DNA of 13,076 nucleotides from positions 1-13,076 of the IMG/VR virus record IMGVR_UViG_2778261393_000007; one strand, 5' to 3'. This document shows positions 5,872 through 13,076 of the stretch, piece after piece. Position 1 is the stretch's first letter. The number at the start of each line of letters is the position of its first letter. A program made the position numbers and the translations under genes. The stretch is from a virus (lineage: Duplodnaviria > Heunggongvirae > Uroviricota > Caudoviricetes). A model generated the notes under the pieces. That model worked only from the letters and a program-made list of their open reading frames with translations. It ran no database searches and was not told the DNA's origin.

Positions 5872-7640
5872 TTTTCATGGATTTTTGGCACAGCGGGTAA
5901 CCATTCATTAGCACTGTCAGCCAGCTCCATGTTGTAGCGCATTCCGACATTGGTCTTTGCCTTCTTATACTCAGCCCCATATTCTTTCATCACTTTTGGG
6001 AAATCTTTGCCAAAATTAGTTAGATTTAATGGCTTATCGAAACCATAAGCATCCATATATGCAAGATATGCATGGTAAAGATAAATTCGAGGGGCTCTTG
6101 GATATATATTCAGGTTTCCCATGAACATTCCTACAGCTTCACCAAGTTCGACAATATGGTTACAAAAAGCATATAGCGGATCAGTATGGCGTTTTACTTC
6201 CATTGCTTCTTCACCATCACGTTGTTCGAGCAGTAATGTTCTTGCTTTTTCGGGATCTGAAAAATTTACCAACAGCCTACGGACTATTACCGGAATTTCC
6301 GCTGCAATTTTTTTGGGTAAACATGTGTCCTTGTTTTCTTCCGCTATCGGATTATTGAACTGAAAAATAACCCTACGGCGTGAAATACCTCCCGCTCTTT
6401 CTGTAAAAACCATCGGTTTATTATTTGTTATCAAAACAACTGAGCGTAAGACAGTGGTGTATCTTTTTTCATATTTCGGGTTAATTTGCAGAGGATCCCC
6501 ACCTGTTATAGCTTTAATACCATTACCTTCACCAAAATATTTAGGTTGGTCCGGTAAAATAATCAGACTTTTACCAACTAGTTGCTCACGTCCACCAGCA
6601 TCATCTAACGCTTTCATATCACTGCCTGCGGTGTTCTGCTCACCCGCCAACATTCTGGCAATTTGAGTAAACATACTTTTACCACTTCCACCTTCGCCAG
6701 TTGCTTCAATGAATAATTGCCAGTCGTAGCGATTAGCCAAAACCATAAACAGAGCAGCACATATCCGCTTCATCTTTGATGAATCGTATCCTGCTGCATG
6801 TGACAGCCAACGATGAAAATGGGGCGCATGGTCATGAATATTTTCACCAGGCGCAGGTGGCGTATAATAAATTCCATTATGCGAAGTGATCCAGTGCTCT
6901 GGTGAATGAGGTAAAAATCTACCACTTGTTATGTCATAAACTCCATTTTCAAAAGGTATTATGGTGTCACTCTGTTCTCTCATTACGGGTACAGATATTT
7001 TTAAAGCATCAACCGCATTACTAATTGCCCGCTTACTGAAATTTGTCTTGTTTTTTTCGTAAATTGATACCATTTTACGACTCAACTCCATATCAGATAT
7101 TTTTTCCCACACTCCAGAACAGTATGCATAAGCAAAATTGTTACCCGGGTGAACAGCTATTTCCTCAAAGCATTCAGCCAAAAGTGAAGCTCGCTCGTTA
7201 TCCGCCATTCTGGAAAGAGAGATTTTGTGTTTTTTCTCAGTCCTTCCTGACAGAATATCCCCGCGCTCTGCCTGTTCGCGGATCCGTTGCAGGTAATCGC
7301 GCCAGTTCTCCGGTTCCCGGTCGGTGATGCCTTTGTATAATTTCGCCTCCTGTACGCCAGCCAGCGCCAGTTTTTCAGCGATAGCATTGATCTGGATTGG
7401 TTCGATCTCCCCCGCGAGATAGACACGCGCAAAGCGGCGTTCATCGTCGACAATGCGGATATTCACCAGGTCTGCCAGTTGCTTTGGCCCCAGGTAAACA
7501 GGTGGTACGTTATCGCCGTGTTTTCGTCCTTCGCTTTCAATCCAGTGTTGAGCATGGGGGTAAGCGTCCGTCCCGGCAAAAATGATTACCTCGGTGAATT
7601 TATCCTTCGGCTGATATTTTAAATTCGGTGCGTTTTTCAC
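5868..7640 (-). CDS. phage/satellite primase-helicase (Toprim-like N-terminus + P-loop NTPase), P4 alpha-like
   Basis: 590-aa ORF. Walker A GEGGSGKS; N-terminal TEVIIFAGTDA ... IRIVDDE consistent with a Toprim acidic motif. GTG start at 7640 with GGAGG SD; GTGA overlap with upstream stop. Confidence 0.88.
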   Translation of the reverse strand: MKNAPNLKYQPKDKFTEVIIFAGTDAYPHAQHWIESEGRKHGDNVPPVYLGPKQLADLVNIRIVDDERRFARVYLAGEIEPIQINAIAEKLALAGVQEAKLYKGITDREPENWRDYLQRIREQAERGDILSGRTEKKHKISLSRMADNERASLLAECFEEIAVHPGNNFAYAYCSGVWEKISDMELSRKMVSIYEKNKTNFSKRAISNAVDALKISVPVMREQSDTIIPFENGVYDITSGRFLPHSPEHWITSHNGIYYTPPAPGENIHDHAPHFHRWLSHAAGYDSSKMKRICAALFMVLANRYDWQLFIEATGEGGSGKSMFTQIARMLAGEQNTAGSDMKALDDAGGREQLVGKSLIILPDQPKYFGEGNGIKAITGGDPLQINPKYEKRYTTVLRSVVLITNNKPMVFTERAGGISRRRVIFQFNNPIAEENKDTCLPKKIAAEIPVIVRRLLVNFSDPEKARTLLLEQRDGEEAMEVKRHTDPLYAFCNHIVELGEAVGMFMGNLNIYPRAPRIYLYHAYLAYMDAYGFDKPLNLTNFGKDFPKVMKEYGAEYKKAKTNVGMRYNMELADSANEWLPAVPKIHEK

Positions 7641-7927
7641 TTCTTACCTCCCGCAACCAACATTGCCCGGATTTTTTTAATATTCGTGGCTGCACGTCTC
7701 GCCACCGCCTGTTGTTTGTTTTCAACCAGAATAAAATCACGCTCAAACTGACGGCGCGGCATTACGCAGTCATATTCGTAAGCCTCACGGCGGTAGGTGA
7801 TATTGCCTGGCGTAACGTGACGAATAACCACCCGTCCCCCGCGTCTGGTGTCCCGGAAAATATCACCGGGGCGGATTTCAGGCCGAGAGAGGCCGCTGGC
7901 AGTAAAGCCAGAATTTTTCTTTTTCAT
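7637..7927 (-). CDS. hypothetical small protein (96 aa)
   Basis: ORF ending in GTGA overlap with the primase start; 4-nt gap after the upstream gene. Confidence 0.6.
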   Translation of the reverse strand: MKKKNSGFTASGLSRPEIRPGDIFRDTRRGGRVVIRHVTPGNITYRREAYEYDCVMPRRQFERDFILVENKQQAVARRAATNIKKIRAMLVAGGKK

Positions 7928-7931
7928 GGTT

Positions 7932-8132
7932 TTATTTTCCTGTCAGCAGTTCCGGTTTTATTTCCGCACGAATACAAAGTTCAGAAAAAAATTCAGGAGA
8001 ACCAACAATCTCATTACTTTTCAGTCGGCATTGTGATTTCACTTTCCCTTTATCCAGGTAAACCAGTACGCGTCCGGTGAAATCATCTGGCACATTAAGC
8101 ACTACGGGTACATGCGCTTCATGATTATGCAT
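7932..8132 (-). CDS. hypothetical small protein (66 aa)
   Basis: ATG 8132 with GGAGG SD; ATGCATAA start/stop overlap with upstream gene. Confidence 0.55.
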   Translation of the reverse strand: MHNHEAHVPVVLNVPDDFTGRVLVYLDKGKVKSQCRLKSNEIVGSPEFFSELCIRAEIKPELLTGK

Positions 8133-8358
8133 GACTTACATCCTCCGTGAATTTTCTTCTGTAACGCGTCTCTGCCACATATTCCGCATAGTCCGACGCA
8201 ATACTAAGAATCATTTCACCCTCTGACTTGTAGCCATTGGTATTGATAAGAAAACATGCAGCTTTCATCATGTCAGCAACGCTCAACAATGCGCCCGATG
8301 TATCTTCCGGTGCGCCATCAAACTCCCGTTTCAGGGAATTAAAACGATCATCACGCAT
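8125..8358 (-). CDS. hypothetical small protein (77 aa)
   Basis: ATG 8358 preceded by GGGGGGGAA SD; ATGCGTGA overlap with upstream stop. Confidence 0.6.
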   Translation of the reverse strand: MRDDRFNSLKREFDGAPEDTSGALLSVADMMKAACFLINTNGYKSEGEMILSIASDYAEYVAETRYRRKFTEDVSHA

Positions 8359-8716
8359 GTTTCCCCCCCTGAATGACCTGATAACCGCAACTGGTCAGCA
8401 ATTCGATAAATTCCGGCAATGTGCCGAAACAGTAATCATCACGCAGACGTTCGCGGGATACTTCAACGCCGTTTTCGTAGTGACTCACCATACACCCGGT
8501 AAAATGCAGATCATCATCGTGATGGCTCGTTGACGGCTTAATCAGTCGCGCACGTTCCGCCAGTTCCAGCAATGCTTCAACGCTTCCGGCAATTGCACCA
8601 TCCGGCAGGTGGTAATTACGCACTATGCGCCCGTTCTCCACATTGACCAGCAACTGCCCGGTAAATTTCTCGTCAAACTGAATGCTGTTAAGGTCAGAAA
8701 TTGACAGGTTATGCAT
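8351..8716 (-). CDS. hypothetical protein (121 aa)
   Basis: ATG 8716 preceded by AGGAGG (6-nt spacing); ATGCATAA overlap with upstream stop. ORF-track start at 8734 lacks an SD. Confidence 0.6.
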   Translation of the reverse strand: MHNLSISDLNSIQFDEKFTGQLLVNVENGRIVRNYHLPDGAIAGSVEALLELAERARLIKPSTSHHDDDLHFTGCMVSHYENGVEVSRERLRDDYCFGTLPEFIELLTSCGYQVIQGGKHA

Positions 8717-8933
8717 GGTGCACCTCCTGCACATCAGCCATGATAATTTTTCCGGTCTTATCCAGTGCCTGATCGGCTTTTAGCTGCACAAATGCTAAAT
8801 AATGGGAGATGCATTCTGATTCTCTGGCTGCGTGTTTATGCGCCACACCAGCGATAGCAGAAATCTCAATAAGTGAATCCATCAGCGTTTTGATAGCGTC
8901 TACCGCTGCATCAGGCCATGTTGCATTACACAT
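8709..8933 (-). CDS. hypothetical small protein (74 aa)
   Basis: ATG 8933 preceded by AGGAGGTGG SD; ATGTGTAA overlap with upstream stop. Confidence 0.6.
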   Translation of the reverse strand: MCNATWPDAAVDAIKTLMDSLIEISAIAGVAHKHAARESECISHYLAFVQLKADQALDKTGKIIMADVQEVHHA

Positions 8934-9129
8934 GCTCCACCTCCTGGCGAATACGGGCAGCGAATACCATCACGCAGCCATCAGGAGATTGCTGGCGTGC
9001 TTCCTGTTCGCTGGTGACCTCGATGTGAATTACGCGCGGTTGTGCCGTGCTCAGGGCGATAAAACGCCAGATGTATTTATTCAGGTTGTGCGAGTCCCGC
9101 CCTTGCGGGTGTGTGGTATGATTTCTCAT
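8926..9129 (-). CDS. hypothetical small protein (67 aa), first gene of the leftward replication operon
   Basis: ATG 9129 preceded by GAGGTAGCT SD. Lies immediately left of the AT-rich divergent regulatory region. The ORF track merges it into a 284-aa ORF, which I reject as a single gene. Confidence 0.5.
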   Translation of the reverse strand: MRNHTTHPQGRDSHNLNKYIWRFIALSTAQPRVIHIEVTSEQEARQQSPDGCVMVFAARIRQEVEHV

Positions 9130-9208
9130 AGCTACCTCGATACTCTTGCTATCGTTGGTGGTTAGACGCCCTGCATGTGTTGCGAGCACTGCGGGGCGTT
9201 GCTCTTTC

Positions 9209-9322
9209 AGGTGTATTTCACCTTTGCTTTTTAATTTACTCACTGGTGAAATACACTTCAAGCCTTTTTTTATCATTTTTTTTGCGTATACTGACATACA
9301 CCAATTTTTAGGAGATCCAGAA
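9209..9322. promoter_or_regulatory. divergent promoter/operator region with 12-bp perfect inverted repeat
   Basis: GTGTATTTCACC (9211-9222) and GGTGAAATACAC (9245-9256) separated by 22 bp. T-rich tract and TATACT (9287-9292) upstream of the plus-strand small gene; AGGAG SD at about 9311-9315. Confidence 0.5.
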
Positions 9323-9502
9323 ATGGCAACTGGTGCAAAGAACGCAAAATCACAAATGACAACTGTCAGAATCCCACATGAAGTAATGGATGATATTGAG
9401 CAACTTAAAGAACCTGGCGAAAGTACCGCTGGTTTTTTAGTTACTGCCGCAAAAGGCGAGATCAAACGCCGCCAGCGGCGCAAGGCCAAAGAACAGGAGT
9501 AG
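9323..9502 (+). CDS. small putative regulator (59 aa, RHH-like)
   Basis: ATG 9323 with AGGAG SD 7 nt upstream and a -10-like TATACT. TTVRIPHEVMDDIEQL...STAGFLVTAAKGEIKRR is compatible with a beta-strand plus two helices (RHH), by eye. Divergent from the leftward operon. Confidence 0.55.
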   Translation: MATGAKNAKSQMTTVRIPHEVMDDIEQLKEPGESTAGFLVTAAKGEIKRRQRRKAKEQE

Positions 9503-9772
9503 TTGATCAGCACCTGGCAACCTGACAAAATCGCATCAGTCACGCCACCAGCAAAATTTTTTGCTTTCCGGACAGCGTGGCCAACGGCATTTTGCAGCGA
9601 AATATTCTGCATTTCTGGCGTGCTGTAGTAACGGTGATCAGTGCCTTCACTCTGTGCGACCACAACGCTATAATCTGCCTCGTAGACAGTAAGCAATATG
9701 GCGCAGTAGGCTATTCGTTCACAAAGGCGCTCCGGCAACGGGGCGCTTTCTCTTTTTGTAACGGTCAGAGCG

Positions 9773-10573
9773 TTACACATGGCTGTTTTCCTCCATGCGA
9801 CGGGCTAACCAACGCTGCGAAAGACGAATTAATTCAGCTTTCCGCTGGTGGTAGCCCTGGCCTAACTCAATCAGCGTGATATTGCTCTGCTCAAGGTAAG
9901 AAAGGTGCTCAAGCTGCAACGTGCTCATGTGGTCGCGTGGTTCGCCTGTGATGCCGTTCGCCTGCGCCCACTGTTTTGCAGTCATGCCACCCAGCACGAT
10001 ACGCGCCAGCATATTGGCTTCCGTGGTGTAGTGGTGCTGGAACGTGTTTTTACCCAGTTCAGCCCGGTACGCCTCCAGCGCGGCACACATTGGCTTAAAG
10101 TAGCTGGCAACGGTGATACGGGCTTTCAGTTCCCGGCGTAATGCTGCGGAACGCACTGGCGCTACCTTGTGTAGCTCCTCCTCGCATTTGATAAAGTACT
10201 GGCGAACGGCGCGGCCCTGTTCGGTACGTTCGACCATCGCCAGTTCTTTCGCCATGTTCACTGTGATGATGTACTCAAGAGCGGTTTGCTGGCGAGATTT
10301 TGCGCTCACCGGATCGGGTCGGCTCAAATATTCAACAACCTCATAATCCACGCCTTCCGTGAACCCGTATTCTTCAATGCGCCCCTTGATCCACGAACGG
10401 AAAACGCGCCCTACACCTAACGCCTTATGTAACGCTCTGGCGCTAACAATAGTGGTTTCACGCCCACCAATAACGCCGGAAATAACCGGGATAATTTCAC
10501 CAAAATTTTGCAGATTCTGGTTTTCAGGCCGAACGAAGCCCTGCCCCTGTACGGGCGTTTTTGGAAATTTCAT
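9773..10573 (-). CDS. AntA-like phage antirepressor family protein
   Basis: 266-aa ORF. ATG 10573 with AGGAG SD (8-nt spacing). SARALHKALGVGRVFRSWIKGRIEEYGFTEGVDYEV matches the AntA/AntB N-terminal domain pattern (by eye). Confidence 0.7.
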   Translation of the reverse strand: MKFPKTPVQGQGFVRPENQNLQNFGEIIPVISGVIGGRETTIVSARALHKALGVGRVFRSWIKGRIEEYGFTEGVDYEVVEYLSRPDPVSAKSRQQTALEYIITVNMAKELAMVERTEQGRAVRQYFIKCEEELHKVAPVRSAALRRELKARITVASYFKPMCAALEAYRAELGKNTFQHHYTTEANMLARIVLGGMTAKQWAQANGITGEPRDHMSTLQLEHLSYLEQSNITLIELGQGYHQRKAELIRLSQRWLARRMEENSHV

Positions 10574-10652
10574 AAAAAACTCCTGCTATCGAATCTGGTT
10601 AATTGCTGTTTGCTGGTGGATAGCTGGGGCGCCTGGTCCCGTAGCTGTTTTA

Positions 10653-10871
10653 TCAGGCTGATGTGTTTCGGCGTTCTTCCAGCCAGCGATTAATCTCTAC
10701 CGCATCGAATGCAGTGCTTTTCTCACCCAGTTTGATGGGCTTAGGCATCTTCCCGCTACGTACCCAACGATCGAGCGTTGATAAGCTGGTACCCAGCAAT
10801 TCAGCCAGGCGATAGCGGCGGATATAGCCAGTTGCAGGGATTGCGGTTTGAAGTATTGGTTGGTTTTTCAT
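10653..10871 (-). CDS. alpA: AlpA-family transcriptional regulator / excisionase-like protein
   Basis: YRLAELLGTSLSTLDRWVRSGKMPKPIKLGEKSTAFDAVEINRWLEER is the classic AlpA HTH signature. Start chosen at ATG 10871 (72 aa); alternatives ATG 10880 or ORF-track 10964. Confidence 0.85.
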   Translation of the reverse strand: MKNQPILQTAIPATGYIRRYRLAELLGTSLSTLDRWVRSGKMPKPIKLGEKSTAFDAVEINRWLEERRNTSA

Positions 10872-10983
10872 ATGCCCCATTACCTTTGTTGTTGGTTTGT
10901 GATTTGTAATAGGGGCATTAAATAACAAATGAAATGATGTGTGTGTGAGTTTTAGAAAAAACACTGTGACTTTTCTTATTTCA

Positions 10984-11766
10984 CTATCTAAAACGCTCTC
11001 GCCAGCTTTTCCAAGTGTTCTTATCTGGTTGTGGGATTACAATGCCTTTTTGAGCACCTATTTGTGCAATTTTTTTATTTAACTTGTTAGGCGGCAAAGA
11101 TATTATCTCATTGTCTGTTAACCCGGCAATTCTTAATAATCCATATATCATTTTAAATTGATGTATTGTTAATCTTGGTAACTTGTGATTTTCTTTTTTT
11201 ATAGTGTTGTTTATGGAGTAAATTGGAAATCCATTTGTTATTGATTTATAAAGGTTGTCAATGTGCTCTCTGGTTATTAATAATGAATCAGGTGTAATCT
11301 TAATGTTGCCGCTTGTTTTTGCATGGCATGAAAAAATAAATGTGGGATTCGCAGTGCGACGTGAAAGCGGTATGGATGTATTCATAGAGATAGTTTTGTT
11401 TCTTACTATAGTCTCTTGAATATCAAAAACTCCAGAAACCTTTGCCTCAAAAATAACACCATTTTCTTTTATTTCATCACTATATTCATGAATAATTATG
11501 CCAAGAGAGGAAATTTCTTTTTTGATGAGAAAAGAAATAAAATCAATATAGTCTTCATCCTTTGGCCATGTAAAATCACGATAACCAAAATACCCCTCAC
11601 AGTAAGCATTTTTTATTTTTGTGGCAAAATTAATTCTGTTAATATCCTGCCAATGCCATAAATCATCTATTTCACATTCTAAAATTTGAGCTGCTCTATC
11701 TAAAGAGCAGAATTCTAATGGAGGTAATTGTTTTTTTTGCCATATTGTTTCATTAATATTTGTCAT
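10984..11766 (-). CDS. hypothetical protein, AT-rich orphan cargo gene (260 aa)
   Basis: Uninterrupted 260-aa ORF between int and alpA in the same orientation. Strikingly AT-rich by eye (roughly 30% GC versus about 50% in flanking genes; not computed). N/K/I-rich; no family recognised; weak SD. Confidence 0.65.
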   Translation of the reverse strand: MTNINETIWQKKQLPPLEFCSLDRAAQILECEIDDLWHWQDINRINFATKIKNAYCEGYFGYRDFTWPKDEDYIDFISFLIKKEISSLGIIIHEYSDEIKENGVIFEAKVSGVFDIQETIVRNKTISMNTSIPLSRRTANPTFIFSCHAKTSGNIKITPDSLLITREHIDNLYKSITNGFPIYSINNTIKKENHKLPRLTIHQFKMIYGLLRIAGLTDNEIISLPPNKLNKKIAQIGAQKGIVIPQPDKNTWKSWRERFR

Positions 11767-11822
11767 GATTGCACTACCGTTATGAAAAAATATATTCGTT
11801 AATGAATTAGCCTTAATGTCTA

Positions 11823-13076
11823 TTATTTATTAGATTGCGTGATGTCAGAACATATCATGTTTTCTAAATTCACCAGCAAATCAGTCCACTGTGCCAGCGC
11901 CGCTTTGCGCTCATCAAAATATTGATGGCGGTTATAAATGCCCTCTACGCCTTTTATGCGGTGGTTAAGGCATCGTTCAGCAACGATCGGGTCAACTCCC
12001 AATGCTGCTAAATGTGTTCGTGCTGTTCGCCGGAAGTCGTGAATTGTAAAGTTGGGGACGTTCGGCATTTCTGCTCTGACTTTTGCCAATGCAACAGGAA
12101 GGGTGCTTTCCTGGATGTGAGGGATCATTCTGTGCTGCATTTTTCTGGCAGGTAATACCCATGCGCTATTGCATGAAAATGTGTGCAATTCTCGCAACCA
12201 TTCTATGGTCGCTGGTGGTAATGGTATGTCGATAGCATCGCCATTTTTAGTTCGTTGTTCTGGTAGATGCCAAATCGCGCCATCTAAGTCGAATTCATCC
12301 CACCTGGCGGCGCATAATTCCATTTTTCTGACACACAATGCTAAGAGCAACTTAAAGGTTAATTCGTTCTGGCGGCTGAATCCTTTGGCTTTACGCATGG
12401 CCTGAAAAAATTGGATTAATTCGTCACGGTTCAGCCAGCGATCACGAGATAATTCTTTCCCACCAGCATCTGATACTTCAAAAGCTGAGCAGGGGTTAAC
12501 CTCCAAAGCAAGGCGTTTAATACCGTAGTCAAATATTCGACGTGTCCACCGAAGAACGTCAGTAGCAATTGTTGGAGCGCCTCTATCAACAATGCTTTTA
12601 AGCATGGCATCAATATGGCGTGGTTTTACATCTTCAACCTTCATGTGGCCTATGGCAGGATTTATGTCTTTATCAATGCGCCTGCGGAGAATATCTGGGT
12701 GTTTCCATCGGGGAAGTATTTGCCGTGCAAAGTATTCGGCGGCAAGTTCAGAAACATGCAGCGCGTTTTTTTCAGCTTCTATTTTTGCCAGTGCTTCGGC
12801 TTTACGCTGCTGTTTTTCTGCGGCTACGTCATATCCCAAAGCAACTCGTGCGGAAAGTTCTTTTGCCAGTTCCCTGGCTTTTGATAACGATAATTCAGAA
12901 TATGAACCAATAAGCATGGCACGAGATTTTCCTGCCAGTTTATATCGAAACCGCCATGTCGGGGATCTATCCACCTCTCTATACCGGAGATATAGCCCAC
13001 CACCATCAGCACGACCTTCGAAATGTTCTCCGGCTTTTATCCATGCGCGGATCTGCATATCTGTGAGTTTTGGCAT
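11823..13076 (-). CDS. int: P4-type tyrosine integrase (DUF4102-like arm-binding N-terminus + catalytic domain)
   Basis: 417-aa ORF with ATG at 13074-13076. N-terminal GGGLYLRYREVDRSPTWRFRYKLAGKSR and C-terminal HDFRRTARTHLAALG...YNRHQYFDERK match P4/CP4-57-type integrases. Its RBS and the attachment site/tRNA lie beyond the window. Confidence 0.92.
   Translation of the reverse strand: MPKLTDMQIRAWIKAGEHFEGRADGGGLYLRYREVDRSPTWRFRYKLAGKSRAMLIGSYSELSLSKARELAKELSARVALGYDVAAEKQQRKAEALAKIEAEKNALHVSELAAEYFARQILPRWKHPDILRRRIDKDINPAIGHMKVEDVKPRHIDAMLKSIVDRGAPTIATDVLRWTRRIFDYGIKRLALEVNPCSAFEVSDAGGKELSRDRWLNRDELIQFFQAMRKAKGFSRQNELTFKLLLALCVRKMELCAARWDEFDLDGAIWHLPEQRTKNGDAIDIPLPPATIEWLRELHTFSCNSAWVLPARKMQHRMIPHIQESTLPVALAKVRAEMPNVPNFTIHDFRRTARTHLAALGVDPIVAERCLNHRIKGVEGIYNRHQYFDERKAALAQWTDLLVNLENMICSDITQSNK

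Follow-up and report, generated by a model that had tools for sequence, protein, structure and literature searches.

A predicted control region at the replication operon of an Escherichia coli phage satellite, with candidate YlcI operators, a putative antisense RNA and a conserved stop-free frame

Repeated boxes between the icd-like gene and ylcI

The window analysed here is the whole 13,076-nt stretch of IMG/VR virus record IMGVR_UViG_2778261393_000007 (positions 1 to 13,076), which, judged by its gene content, is an E. coli phage satellite of the type of the phage-inducible chromosomal islands (PICIs) and P4. The region studied separates a 59-aa plus-strand gene of the ylcI family from a leftward replication operon that runs from an icd-like gene to a primase gene, with 193 bp from start codon to start codon (the icd-like ATG at 9129 on the minus strand and the ylcI ATG at 9323 on the plus strand). 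The original prediction had described an AT-rich region of about 190 bp carrying a 12-bp perfect inverted repeat with a 22-bp spacer, long T-tracts, and a 59-aa gene with a strong Shine-Dalgarno (SD) sequence. The repeat, the T-tracts (9264-9286) and the gene with its SD sequence were all found as described. The length also holds, but AT-richness is confined to the right-hand part (9200-9322, 32.5% GC), whereas 9130-9199 has 57% GC because a hairpin lies there.

The arms of the inverted repeat, GTGTATTTCACC (9211-9222) and GGTGAAATACAC (9245-9256), were identified by direct reading and by repeat search, and extend over 17 nt at 88%. When the 193-bp gap was shuffled 2000 times with dinucleotides preserved, no perfect inverted repeat of 12 bp or more arose, the longest being 11 bp and appearing once. 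Perfect 12-bp inverted repeats with a spacer of up to 40 number only three in the entire 13 kb of the window. The other two lie at 5614-5644, just 3' of the primase gene in an AT-rich stretch where an origin or a terminator is conceivable, and at 2014-2053, just 3' of the stop codon of the gene for a 174-aa helix-turn-helix protein (2099-2623, minus strand).

A third copy of the arm sequence, TGACATACACC, is located at 9292-9302, and each arm is in itself palindrome-like (GGTG-N5-CACC). The arrangement was compared in 65 loci taken from one genome per species together with ten E. coli loci, covering Escherichia, Yersinia, Pectobacterium, Dickeya, Xenorhabdus, Serratia, Hafnia, Proteus, Morganella, and other genera. 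One architecture is common to all collected loci, namely a gap of approximately 184-205 bp with three boxes of the form (G)GTG-N5-CAC(C). Box 2 occupies position -74 in all of them and box 1 sits 22-38 bp to its left, while in nearly all loci box 3 follows the -10 hexamer TATACT, at -36/-29 from the ylcI ATG, and carries the same core as box 2. Boxes of one locus have a common N5 core, which changes from locus to locus and falls into at least 12 classes across about 66 distinct loci. Members of one class have invariant boxes and promoter hexamers and scrambled spacers.

The relative orientation of boxes 1 and 2 depends on the class. The two boxes are inverted in some classes, among them those of the window, TCTTACAC, and AATGCCAC, and form direct repeats in others, such as CFT073, AATCGCAC, TCAGCCAC, and AACACCAC, so the inverted-repeat hairpin is not conserved. 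On this comparison, the perfect 12-bp repeat arises in the window from two putative protein-binding boxes, 1 and 2, that point in opposite directions. Among E. coli genomes, the DNA homology of the islands has two sharp breaks, one at about 9200, between box 1 and the hairpin of the predicted antisense RNA described below, and one at the stop codon of ylcI. The operators together with ylcI can therefore be seen as an exchangeable cassette, similar to the immunity region of lambdoid phages.

YlcI types and box classes

The 59-aa protein belongs to the NCBIfam family YlcI/YnfO (NF041551; 64 bits against a cutoff of 30, E 9e-18, residues 9-50), and the identical protein WP_000190457.1 carries this name in RefSeq. 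The gene had been described as ribbon-helix-helix (RHH)-like, and its predicted structure, a monomer model, indeed has the beta-alpha-alpha fold of RHH proteins, the best structural match being the DNA-binding domain of the antitoxin CopASO, a CopG-family protein (6iya). YlcI homologs share 80-95% protein identity as against about 70% DNA identity, and their variation is concentrated in residues 11-17, the predicted DNA-reading strand. Matches to ylcI are present in approximately 1200 of 5426 complete E. coli genomes, and tblastn gave no match of the YlcI subfamily in 50,697 phage genomes.

Each box class pairs with one version of residues 11-17 in the approximately 66 loci and in further E. 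coli cases. For example, QMTTVRI is paired with (A/C)ATACAC, QQLNARF with AATCGCAC, KKLEARV with TCAGCCAC, QALKARV with TGGCCCAC, QK(L/V)QARA with G(A/G)(C/A/T)TCCAC, and QS(I/V)T(V/A)R with TCTTACAC. Proteins with common residues 12 and 14 have near-identical cores: Q and N go with AATCG or AATAG, and M or L with T goes with ATACA or ACACA. At the Serratia oryzae locus (L021), one T-to-C change is found in all three boxes together with the replacements M12L and T13F. Contacts to the N5 core probably come from residues 12 and 14 of the beta-strand, and those to the outer GTG/CAC from the conserved arm and R16. The three boxes are placed at promoter elements, and their cores co-vary with the predicted strand residues 11-17.

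The box class does not follow the other proteins of the element, which disfavours AlpA, Icd, and AntA as box binders and speaks against the earlier proposal of AlpA in this role. The Escherichia ruysiae locus L003 has a 100% identical YlcI and identical boxes, and its AlpA is only 28% identical. Three loci with Icd 88-92% identical (L002, L068, and L069) have other YlcI types and other boxes, and AntA is often absent from the compared loci. One box class also occurs with differing primase types, D5/Pox_D5 in the window and DUF927 in L072 and L073.

A divergent 65-aa member of the family, which we take to be closer to the DLP12 YlcI of E. coli K-12, was observed at the same position in E. coli JNE21-009 (L069, 1896-2093), with its own palindromic boxes, TGTGCGCACA, in three copies. 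The YlcI/YnfO proteins of lambdoid prophages may also be operator-binding RHH regulators. Literature searches returned no function assigned to YlcI/YnfO and no named repressor for Gram-negative PICIs.

Promoters, the predicted antisense RNA, and the stop-free frame

The predicted leftward promoter (PL) and ylcI promoter (PR) were recognized by their conservation (Table 1). A PL -35 element, TTGAnn, is found at a fixed place (-67, minus strand) in 66/66 loci and is followed 17-18 nt downstream by a -10 element, TAnnnT, in 61/66 loci, relatives reaching up to 11 of 12 consensus matches. The minus-strand A-tract upstream of the PL -35, which corresponds to the T-tracts noted originally, resembles an UP element. 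In the more tightly spaced classes box 1 abuts the PL -10, mirroring box 3 at the ylcI promoter. Because boxes 1 and 2 bracket PL and box 3 abuts the PR -10, the positions of these predicted elements suggest that YlcI most likely represses both promoters.

To the left of the repeat, a plus-strand RNA of approximately 80 nt is predicted that is complementary to the SD and start region of icd. In the alignment of its hairpins, 97.3% of cells are paired on the plus strand as against 84.2% on the minus strand, with compensatory changes in 15 of 23 pairs; none of 500 shuffles was as good, and slid controls gave 30-47% pairing. G.U pairs amount to 192 cells over 16 pairs on the plus strand and to 5 cells on the minus strand (A.C), and this near restriction to one strand argues that the folded RNA is the plus strand, antisense to icd. 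The predicted RNA folds at -38.7 kcal/mol (z -5.0). The hexamer TATGAT (9117-9122) of its candidate promoter lies about 7 nt upstream of the RNA 5' end and conforms to TAnnnT, with T1 and T6 invariant and A2 above 90% among 62 sequences, while the overlapping icd codon varies between His, Ser, Leu, Cys, Asp, and Phe and is always NNT.

A covariance model made from these loci (R1) matches the antisense strand of the repA leader of an RSF1010-type plasmid over its full length (L071 525-607, minus strand; model positions 1-80; 33.4 bits, E 1.7e-6), and the same stretch scores 94.9 bits with RF00043, the Rfam family of R1162-like plasmid antisense RNAs. The RSF1010-like plasmid L070 was set aside as a hybrid without a native repA leader. 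In the window loci and in the RSF1010-type leader alike, UAACCACCAAC separates the GC hairpin from the SD hairpin, and AUGGCU comes next. The predicted RNA has two hairpins, supported by covariation, and lies antisense to the SD and start codon of icd, which heads the replication operon. On this likeness we take it to be distantly related to the IncQ countertranscript. Since stop and start codons overlap along the tight chain from icd to the primase gene, a block of icd translation should propagate downstream.

The original prediction had also considered a processed small RNA by analogy with P4. A cis-antisense RNA of the R1162 type is indeed predicted, but no RNA of the P4 CI/C4 kind: C4/CI (RF01695, RF03163), isrK, and c4-a1b1 were absent from Rfam scans of the window (E up to 1) and of 9050-9350 (E up to 10). 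In P4, used as a positive control, C4 (74.9 bits) and isrK (60.8 bits) scored above gathering and c4-a1b1 (44.1 bits) just below 46.7, and the R1 model gave no match there. The scans of the window and of 9050-9350 also placed no known RNA family at the inverted repeat, and weak matches to ToxI, SAM-II, and ST7-OT4 were treated as chance. Literature searches found no report of this RNA and nothing specific on antisense RNA in PICIs.

The region had been called intergenic, and it is a gap between two genes, but one that is crossed by a conserved stop-free frame on the minus strand. The frame of icd is open for 225 codons upstream of the icd ATG, crossing the leader and operators and then all of ylcI on its antisense strand. 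It is stop-free in 57/66 loci in the 185 nt upstream of ylcI (the other two minus phases have a mean of 5.0 and 5.4 stops), in 66/66 loci inside ylcI (2.8 and 3.8 stops), and in 45/66 loci in the first 150 nt downstream of ylcI (3.6 and 3.7 stops), and every variable segment is separately depleted of stops in this phase. Base composition or conserved motifs were rejected as the cause, given the separate depletion of the variable segments and the approximately 5 stops in each other minus frame. Five of six more E. coli loci are stop-free in all three segments, and the sixth (L074) has two intergenic stops. The long frame joins icd in frame in about two-thirds of loci and in the others ends near the icd start or continues in another frame. 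A strict requirement for 3n indels was dropped, as the distance from the linker to the ATG falls in two residue classes, which suggests that the frame is kept open lineage by lineage.

The first ATG of the long open reading frame (ORF) has a strong SD sequence in many loci. As in the eta/kil nesting of P4, the long ORF begins upstream of an internal promoter, is coupled to the gene upstream, and is in frame with icd. PGAP sometimes calls the long frame an Icd-like protein (157 aa in CFT073, 134 aa in S40, and 116 aa in JNE21-009). The antA and alpA genes (9773-10871, minus strand) are the likely source of read-through transcription into the control region. In EcCICFT073, an ORF downstream of alpA is expressed in an AlpA-dependent manner (PMC6092414), which may fit read-through from the alpA promoter.

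Table 1. Features of the window, from right to left
Feature	Position	Strand	Details and basis
Tyrosine integrase gene	11823-13076	minus	
260-aa ORF			between integrase gene and alpA in right-to-left order
alpA	10653-10871	minus	Pfam Phage_AlpA, 1.8e-8
antA (AntA/AntB antirepressor)	9773-10573	minus	Pfam AntA, 2.5e-23
Long stop-free frame, 284 codons, eta-like	8926-9780	minus	ATG at 9780 overlaps the antA stop, GGAGG upstream
Intrinsic-terminator-like hairpin and T-run, 3' of ylcI	9724-9759	plus	terminator scan
ylcI-family gene, 59 aa	9323-9502	plus	SD AGGAG 9310-9314, 8 nt before the ATG
Putative operator box 3, ACTGACATACACC	9290-9302		overlaps 3' end of PR -10 and predicted start site; repeat search, comparative
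ylcI promoter PR (predicted), -10 TATACT	9287-9292	plus	at -36 in 52/66 loci, invariant in class alignment
Leftward promoter PL (predicted)	9233-9261	minus	-35 TTGAAG 9261..9256, 17-nt spacer, -10 TAAATT 9238..9233, start near 9226
Putative operator box 2, GGTGAAATACACT, right arm	9245-9257		fills the PL -35/-10 spacer; comparative
Putative operator box 1, GGTGTATTTCACC, left arm	9210-9222		about +4 to +16 of the predicted leftward transcript; class-invariant, flanks vary
Predicted antisense RNA, about 80 nt	9129-9207	plus	covariation, fold, RF00043 likeness
5' hairpin of the RNA	9138-9154	plus	followed by linker GUUGGUGGUUAG
Terminator-like hairpin of the RNA	9166-9199	plus	followed by UUGCUCUUUC
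Extended -10 of the predicted antisense-RNA promoter, TGgTATGAT	9114-9122	plus	within the first codons of icd
icd-like gene, 67 aa, first gene of leftward operon	8926-9129	minus	NCBIfam NF033153, 67.6 bits; RefSeq Icd-like
D5/Pox_D5-type primase-helicase gene	5868-7640	minus	leftward operon

The window is near-identical to the E. coli ABU 83972 island adjoining yicC/rph and has the traits of Gram-negative PICIs of the EcCICFT073 type, namely int, alpA, a replication operon with a primase gene, packaging-redirection genes, and an island size of approximately 12-15 kb; E. coli PICIs are activated by AlpA (PMC6092414). The ylcI-icd module recurs, in another class and at about 70% DNA identity, in the CFT073 island adjoining pepT/roxA, probably EcCICFT073. 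Five small ORFs, one of them DUF4222, lie between the icd-like gene and the primase gene, and the window also contains PerC-like, ProQ/FinO-like, and packaging-related genes. The 220 nt from the ylcI stop to the terminator-like hairpin (9503-9723) hold no plus-strand gene, while the relatives CFT073, E47, 2014C-4135, and S40 encode there a further small hypothetical protein of 57-67 aa on the plus strand. A tandem pair of GC hairpins with U-tails at 4285-4361 (minus strand), which weakly matches Rfam ncr1175 (32 bits) and the R1 model (15.5 bits), is probably a double terminator ending the PerC/ProQ-like gene block. At the far end of the island and on the opposite strand, the stretch 1-1244 contains an ORF judged by eye from the sequence to be DUF3800-like (1-762, plus strand) and, overlapping it, one of 163 aa, both of which may be accessory or defence cargo. 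We also considered the repeat as a cosB-like packaging site, an idea that arose from the presumed neighbourhood of ylcI and nohD in lambdoid prophages, and dropped it in view of the absence of the lambda cosN sequence from the window.

The Icd-like protein bears the PHROGs label 'transcriptional repressor' (phrog_6196). In the P4 record, the obsolete 'cI gene product' ORF (L076 8168-8584), which is really eta/kil, is annotated 'transcriptional repressor', and to judge by this product name the label most likely derives from it; the label should not be read as evidence for DNA binding by Icd. The Icd-like protein and the P4 eta/kil ORF are barely similar (E 0.13).

Control model, alternatives, and related systems

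We consider it probable that 9114-9322 is a two-level, possibly three-level, control region of the replication operon that combines repression by YlcI, an antisense RNA, and induction by read-through. From the comparisons above we infer binding and repression by YlcI, the existence of the RNA, and the read-through mechanism as follows. RHH dimers of YlcI would bind the three 11-13-bp boxes, (G)GTG-N5-CAC(C). From box 3, over the PR -10 and start site, YlcI would repress its own gene, and from box 2, between the PL -35 and -10, and box 1, just past the start, it would repress the operon from icd to the primase gene. A constitutive plus-strand RNA of about 80 nt would extend from the icd start codon to the 9166-9199 hairpin and pair with the icd leader and ribosome site, blocking the translation of icd and, via coupling and polarity, of the downstream primase gene. 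In the resting island, YlcI would hold PL and its own promoter repressed while the antisense RNA blocks leaky icd translation. On induction by a helper, AlpA would drive alpA-antA transcripts through the translated stop-free ORF into icd, which is the least certain step, and such read-through would bypass both brakes and interfere with ylcI expression; in this way the module would control satellite induction. The resting-state part is well supported by comparison, while the induction step is what we infer from gene order and the open frame. As to the originally proposed operator for the small regulator in a divergent switch, the co-variation of cores with the strand and the conserved divergent promoters support it, but the inverted repeat itself is not the functional unit.

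More tentatively, the translated bridge ORF, ending as an N-terminally extended Icd, might override repressor and antisense RNA at once, and the YlcI types might be satellite immunity groups, a proposal that we hold as doubtful. Such a bridge would be the P4 eta principle applied to a cassette of protein and countertranscript, with the repressor gene embedded opposite a translated ORF, an arrangement that would be undescribed for PICIs.

Several points weigh against the repressor and countertranscript model. YlcI has no match to an RHH family of Pfam at E up to 0.1, the 52-sequence YlcI profile gave no match to PDB sequences at E up to 10, and the RHH fold rests on a monomer model. PL of the window is weak (8 of 12 consensus matches), PR has a T-tract upstream and no good -35, and a simple promoter and terminator scan called neither of them nor the 9166-9199 hairpin; all three rest on comparative conservation. 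The tail after the hairpin is moderately U-rich, with a mean of 5 T in 10, and RF00043 matches the window at 9128-9201 with 18.4 bits (E 0.62), below its gathering threshold of 55. The long frame is out of frame with icd in about 30% of loci and interrupted in 9/66. Since operators and gene are adjacent, co-inheritance explains part of the co-variation; functional co-variation is argued from the concordance of three boxes, from conserved boxes among scrambled spacers, and from the dissociation of both from the other neighbours. YlcI could moreover act as a post-induction copy-number brake instead of a maintenance repressor, an alternative taken up below.

It is scarcely credible that the inverted repeat works as a nucleic-acid hairpin, be it an RNA stem-loop, a terminator, a P4-like processed immunity RNA, or a DNA cruciform. 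Its arms form 12 perfect base pairs, a scan found a small plus-strand hairpin with a T-run in the left arm (9209-9223), and the corresponding position in P4 is occupied by an RNA immunity factor; however, boxes 1 and 2 are direct repeats in many classes and their spacing varies between 22 and 38 bp, a transcript from PL, with its predicted start located between the arms, would hold only one arm, and C4/CI, isrK, and c4-a1b1, all three found in P4, were not found in the window (E up to 1) or in 9050-9350 (E up to 10). The comparative data largely refute such a hairpin. Binding of the boxes by AlpA, the Icd-like protein, AntA, the primase (as origin iterons), or a helper protein instead of YlcI is very unlikely, although AlpA, as the known activator of E. 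coli PICIs, must act somewhere (PMC6092414), the PHROGs label would make the Icd-like family repressors, and short repeated boxes could be iterons. Against these binders stand the independence of the box class from AlpA, Icd, and AntA, the occurrence of one class with different primase types, and the concentration of YlcI variation in the predicted DNA-reading strand, while the label is most likely a relic of the P4 'cI' annotation. A helper factor is conceivable but would leave at least 12 box classes tied to a cis-encoded protein unexplained.

An account without any antisense RNA, in which the 9166-9199 hairpin stabilises or structures the sense leader of icd, appears unlikely. The hairpin does lie within the 5' leader of the predicted PL transcript, and the plus-strand tail is an imperfect U-tract, but the distribution of G.U pairs and the pairing percentages of the two strands, the conserved -10 just upstream of the RNA 5' end, and the homology to the proven R1162 countertranscript all favour an RNA from the plus strand. 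Of more weight is the possibility, which we regard as real if less than even, that YlcI and the antisense RNA form a plasmid-style copy-number module that throttles replication after induction, quiescence coming only from the lack of AlpA. An RHH repressor and an antisense RNA together control repB in pMV158 (PMC4485353), the predicted RNA is related to the IncQ countertranscript, and overexpression of AlpA alone induces EcCICFT073 (PMC6092414). The anatomy, however, fits both roles equally and the roles are compatible, while the many specificity classes look more like immunity types. By analogy with these plasmids, copy control is a live alternative or addition to the repressor role of YlcI.

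Each part of the proposed region has known counterparts, namely RHH repressors with operators, countertranscripts, and the nesting of kil in eta. The satellite P4 resembles the window in its integrase gene, alpA-like gene, long ORF coupled to the gene upstream, internal promoter, nested short 3' gene, small genes, and primase gene; the 284-codon frame corresponds to eta and icd to kil, a gene of the kill or division-inhibitor type, and both systems have an RNA-level brake on the first translated gene. According to Forti et al. (1999), as summarised in PMC10111431, kil is the 3' part of eta, eta is coupled to an alpA homolog and starts upstream of the early promoter, and its translation prevents the termination of transcripts from the upstream promoter. 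The window differs from P4 in having no CI/C4 RNA or targets of the seqA/seqC type, its RNA being a cis-antisense RNA of another family, and in having an RHH gene with operators opposite the eta-like frame, where P4 has no protein repressor.

The 75-nt countertranscript of the IncQ plasmids R1162/RSF1010 (RF00043) shares with the predicted RNA the GC hairpin, the linker UAACCACCAAC, and the SD/anti-SD hairpin before AUGGCU; it acts on repA in the way proposed here for icd, and the same operon is under a small autoregulating repressor (F in IncQ). The differences are that the target in the window is icd-like and not the repA helicase, that the repressor is divergent and of the RHH YlcI type, and that the host is an integrated satellite. 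CopG and RNAII of pMV158 likewise unite an RHH repressor on pseudo-symmetric promoter boxes with an antisense RNA over a ribosome site, although no sequence relationship is detectable and copG is co-transcribed with its target, whereas ylcI is divergent. Dual RHH and antisense control with divergent promoters is also known from P22 immI (Mnt, Arc, and sar RNA). The three dispersed boxes of the window, with swappable cores, differ from both pMV158 and P22, and the Omega repressor of inc18 plasmids binds contiguous 7-bp heptads, in contrast to boxes of 11-13 bp that are 22-45 bp apart. P1 immI (c4-icd-ant) has the icd-like domain in common with the window, which differs in having no c4 RNA and in having antA upstream, in the alpA operon, rather than downstream of icd.

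Stl of the Staphylococcus aureus pathogenicity islands and Rpr of PICIs are similar to YlcI in being small regulators of diverse sequence types, divergent from a replication operon and next to int. Both are helix-turn-helix proteins. They are the master repressors of Gram-positive islands and are counteracted by helper phage proteins, whereas for Gram-negative PICIs only the activator AlpA is known and the repressor is unclear (PMC6092414). YlcI is a concrete and widespread candidate for this missing repressor, with many exchangeable specificity types, and the proposed binding to its own operators at the replication-operon promoter would provide a function for the small RHH family YlcI/YnfO. 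The predicted RNA would extend the IncQ countertranscript family to chromosomal satellites, and the stop-free frame would link the regulation of PICIs to the eta/kil mechanism of P4. Orthogonal repressor-operator pairs could be built from the matched classes of protein and box, which may also predict the mutual immunity or compatibility of satellites.

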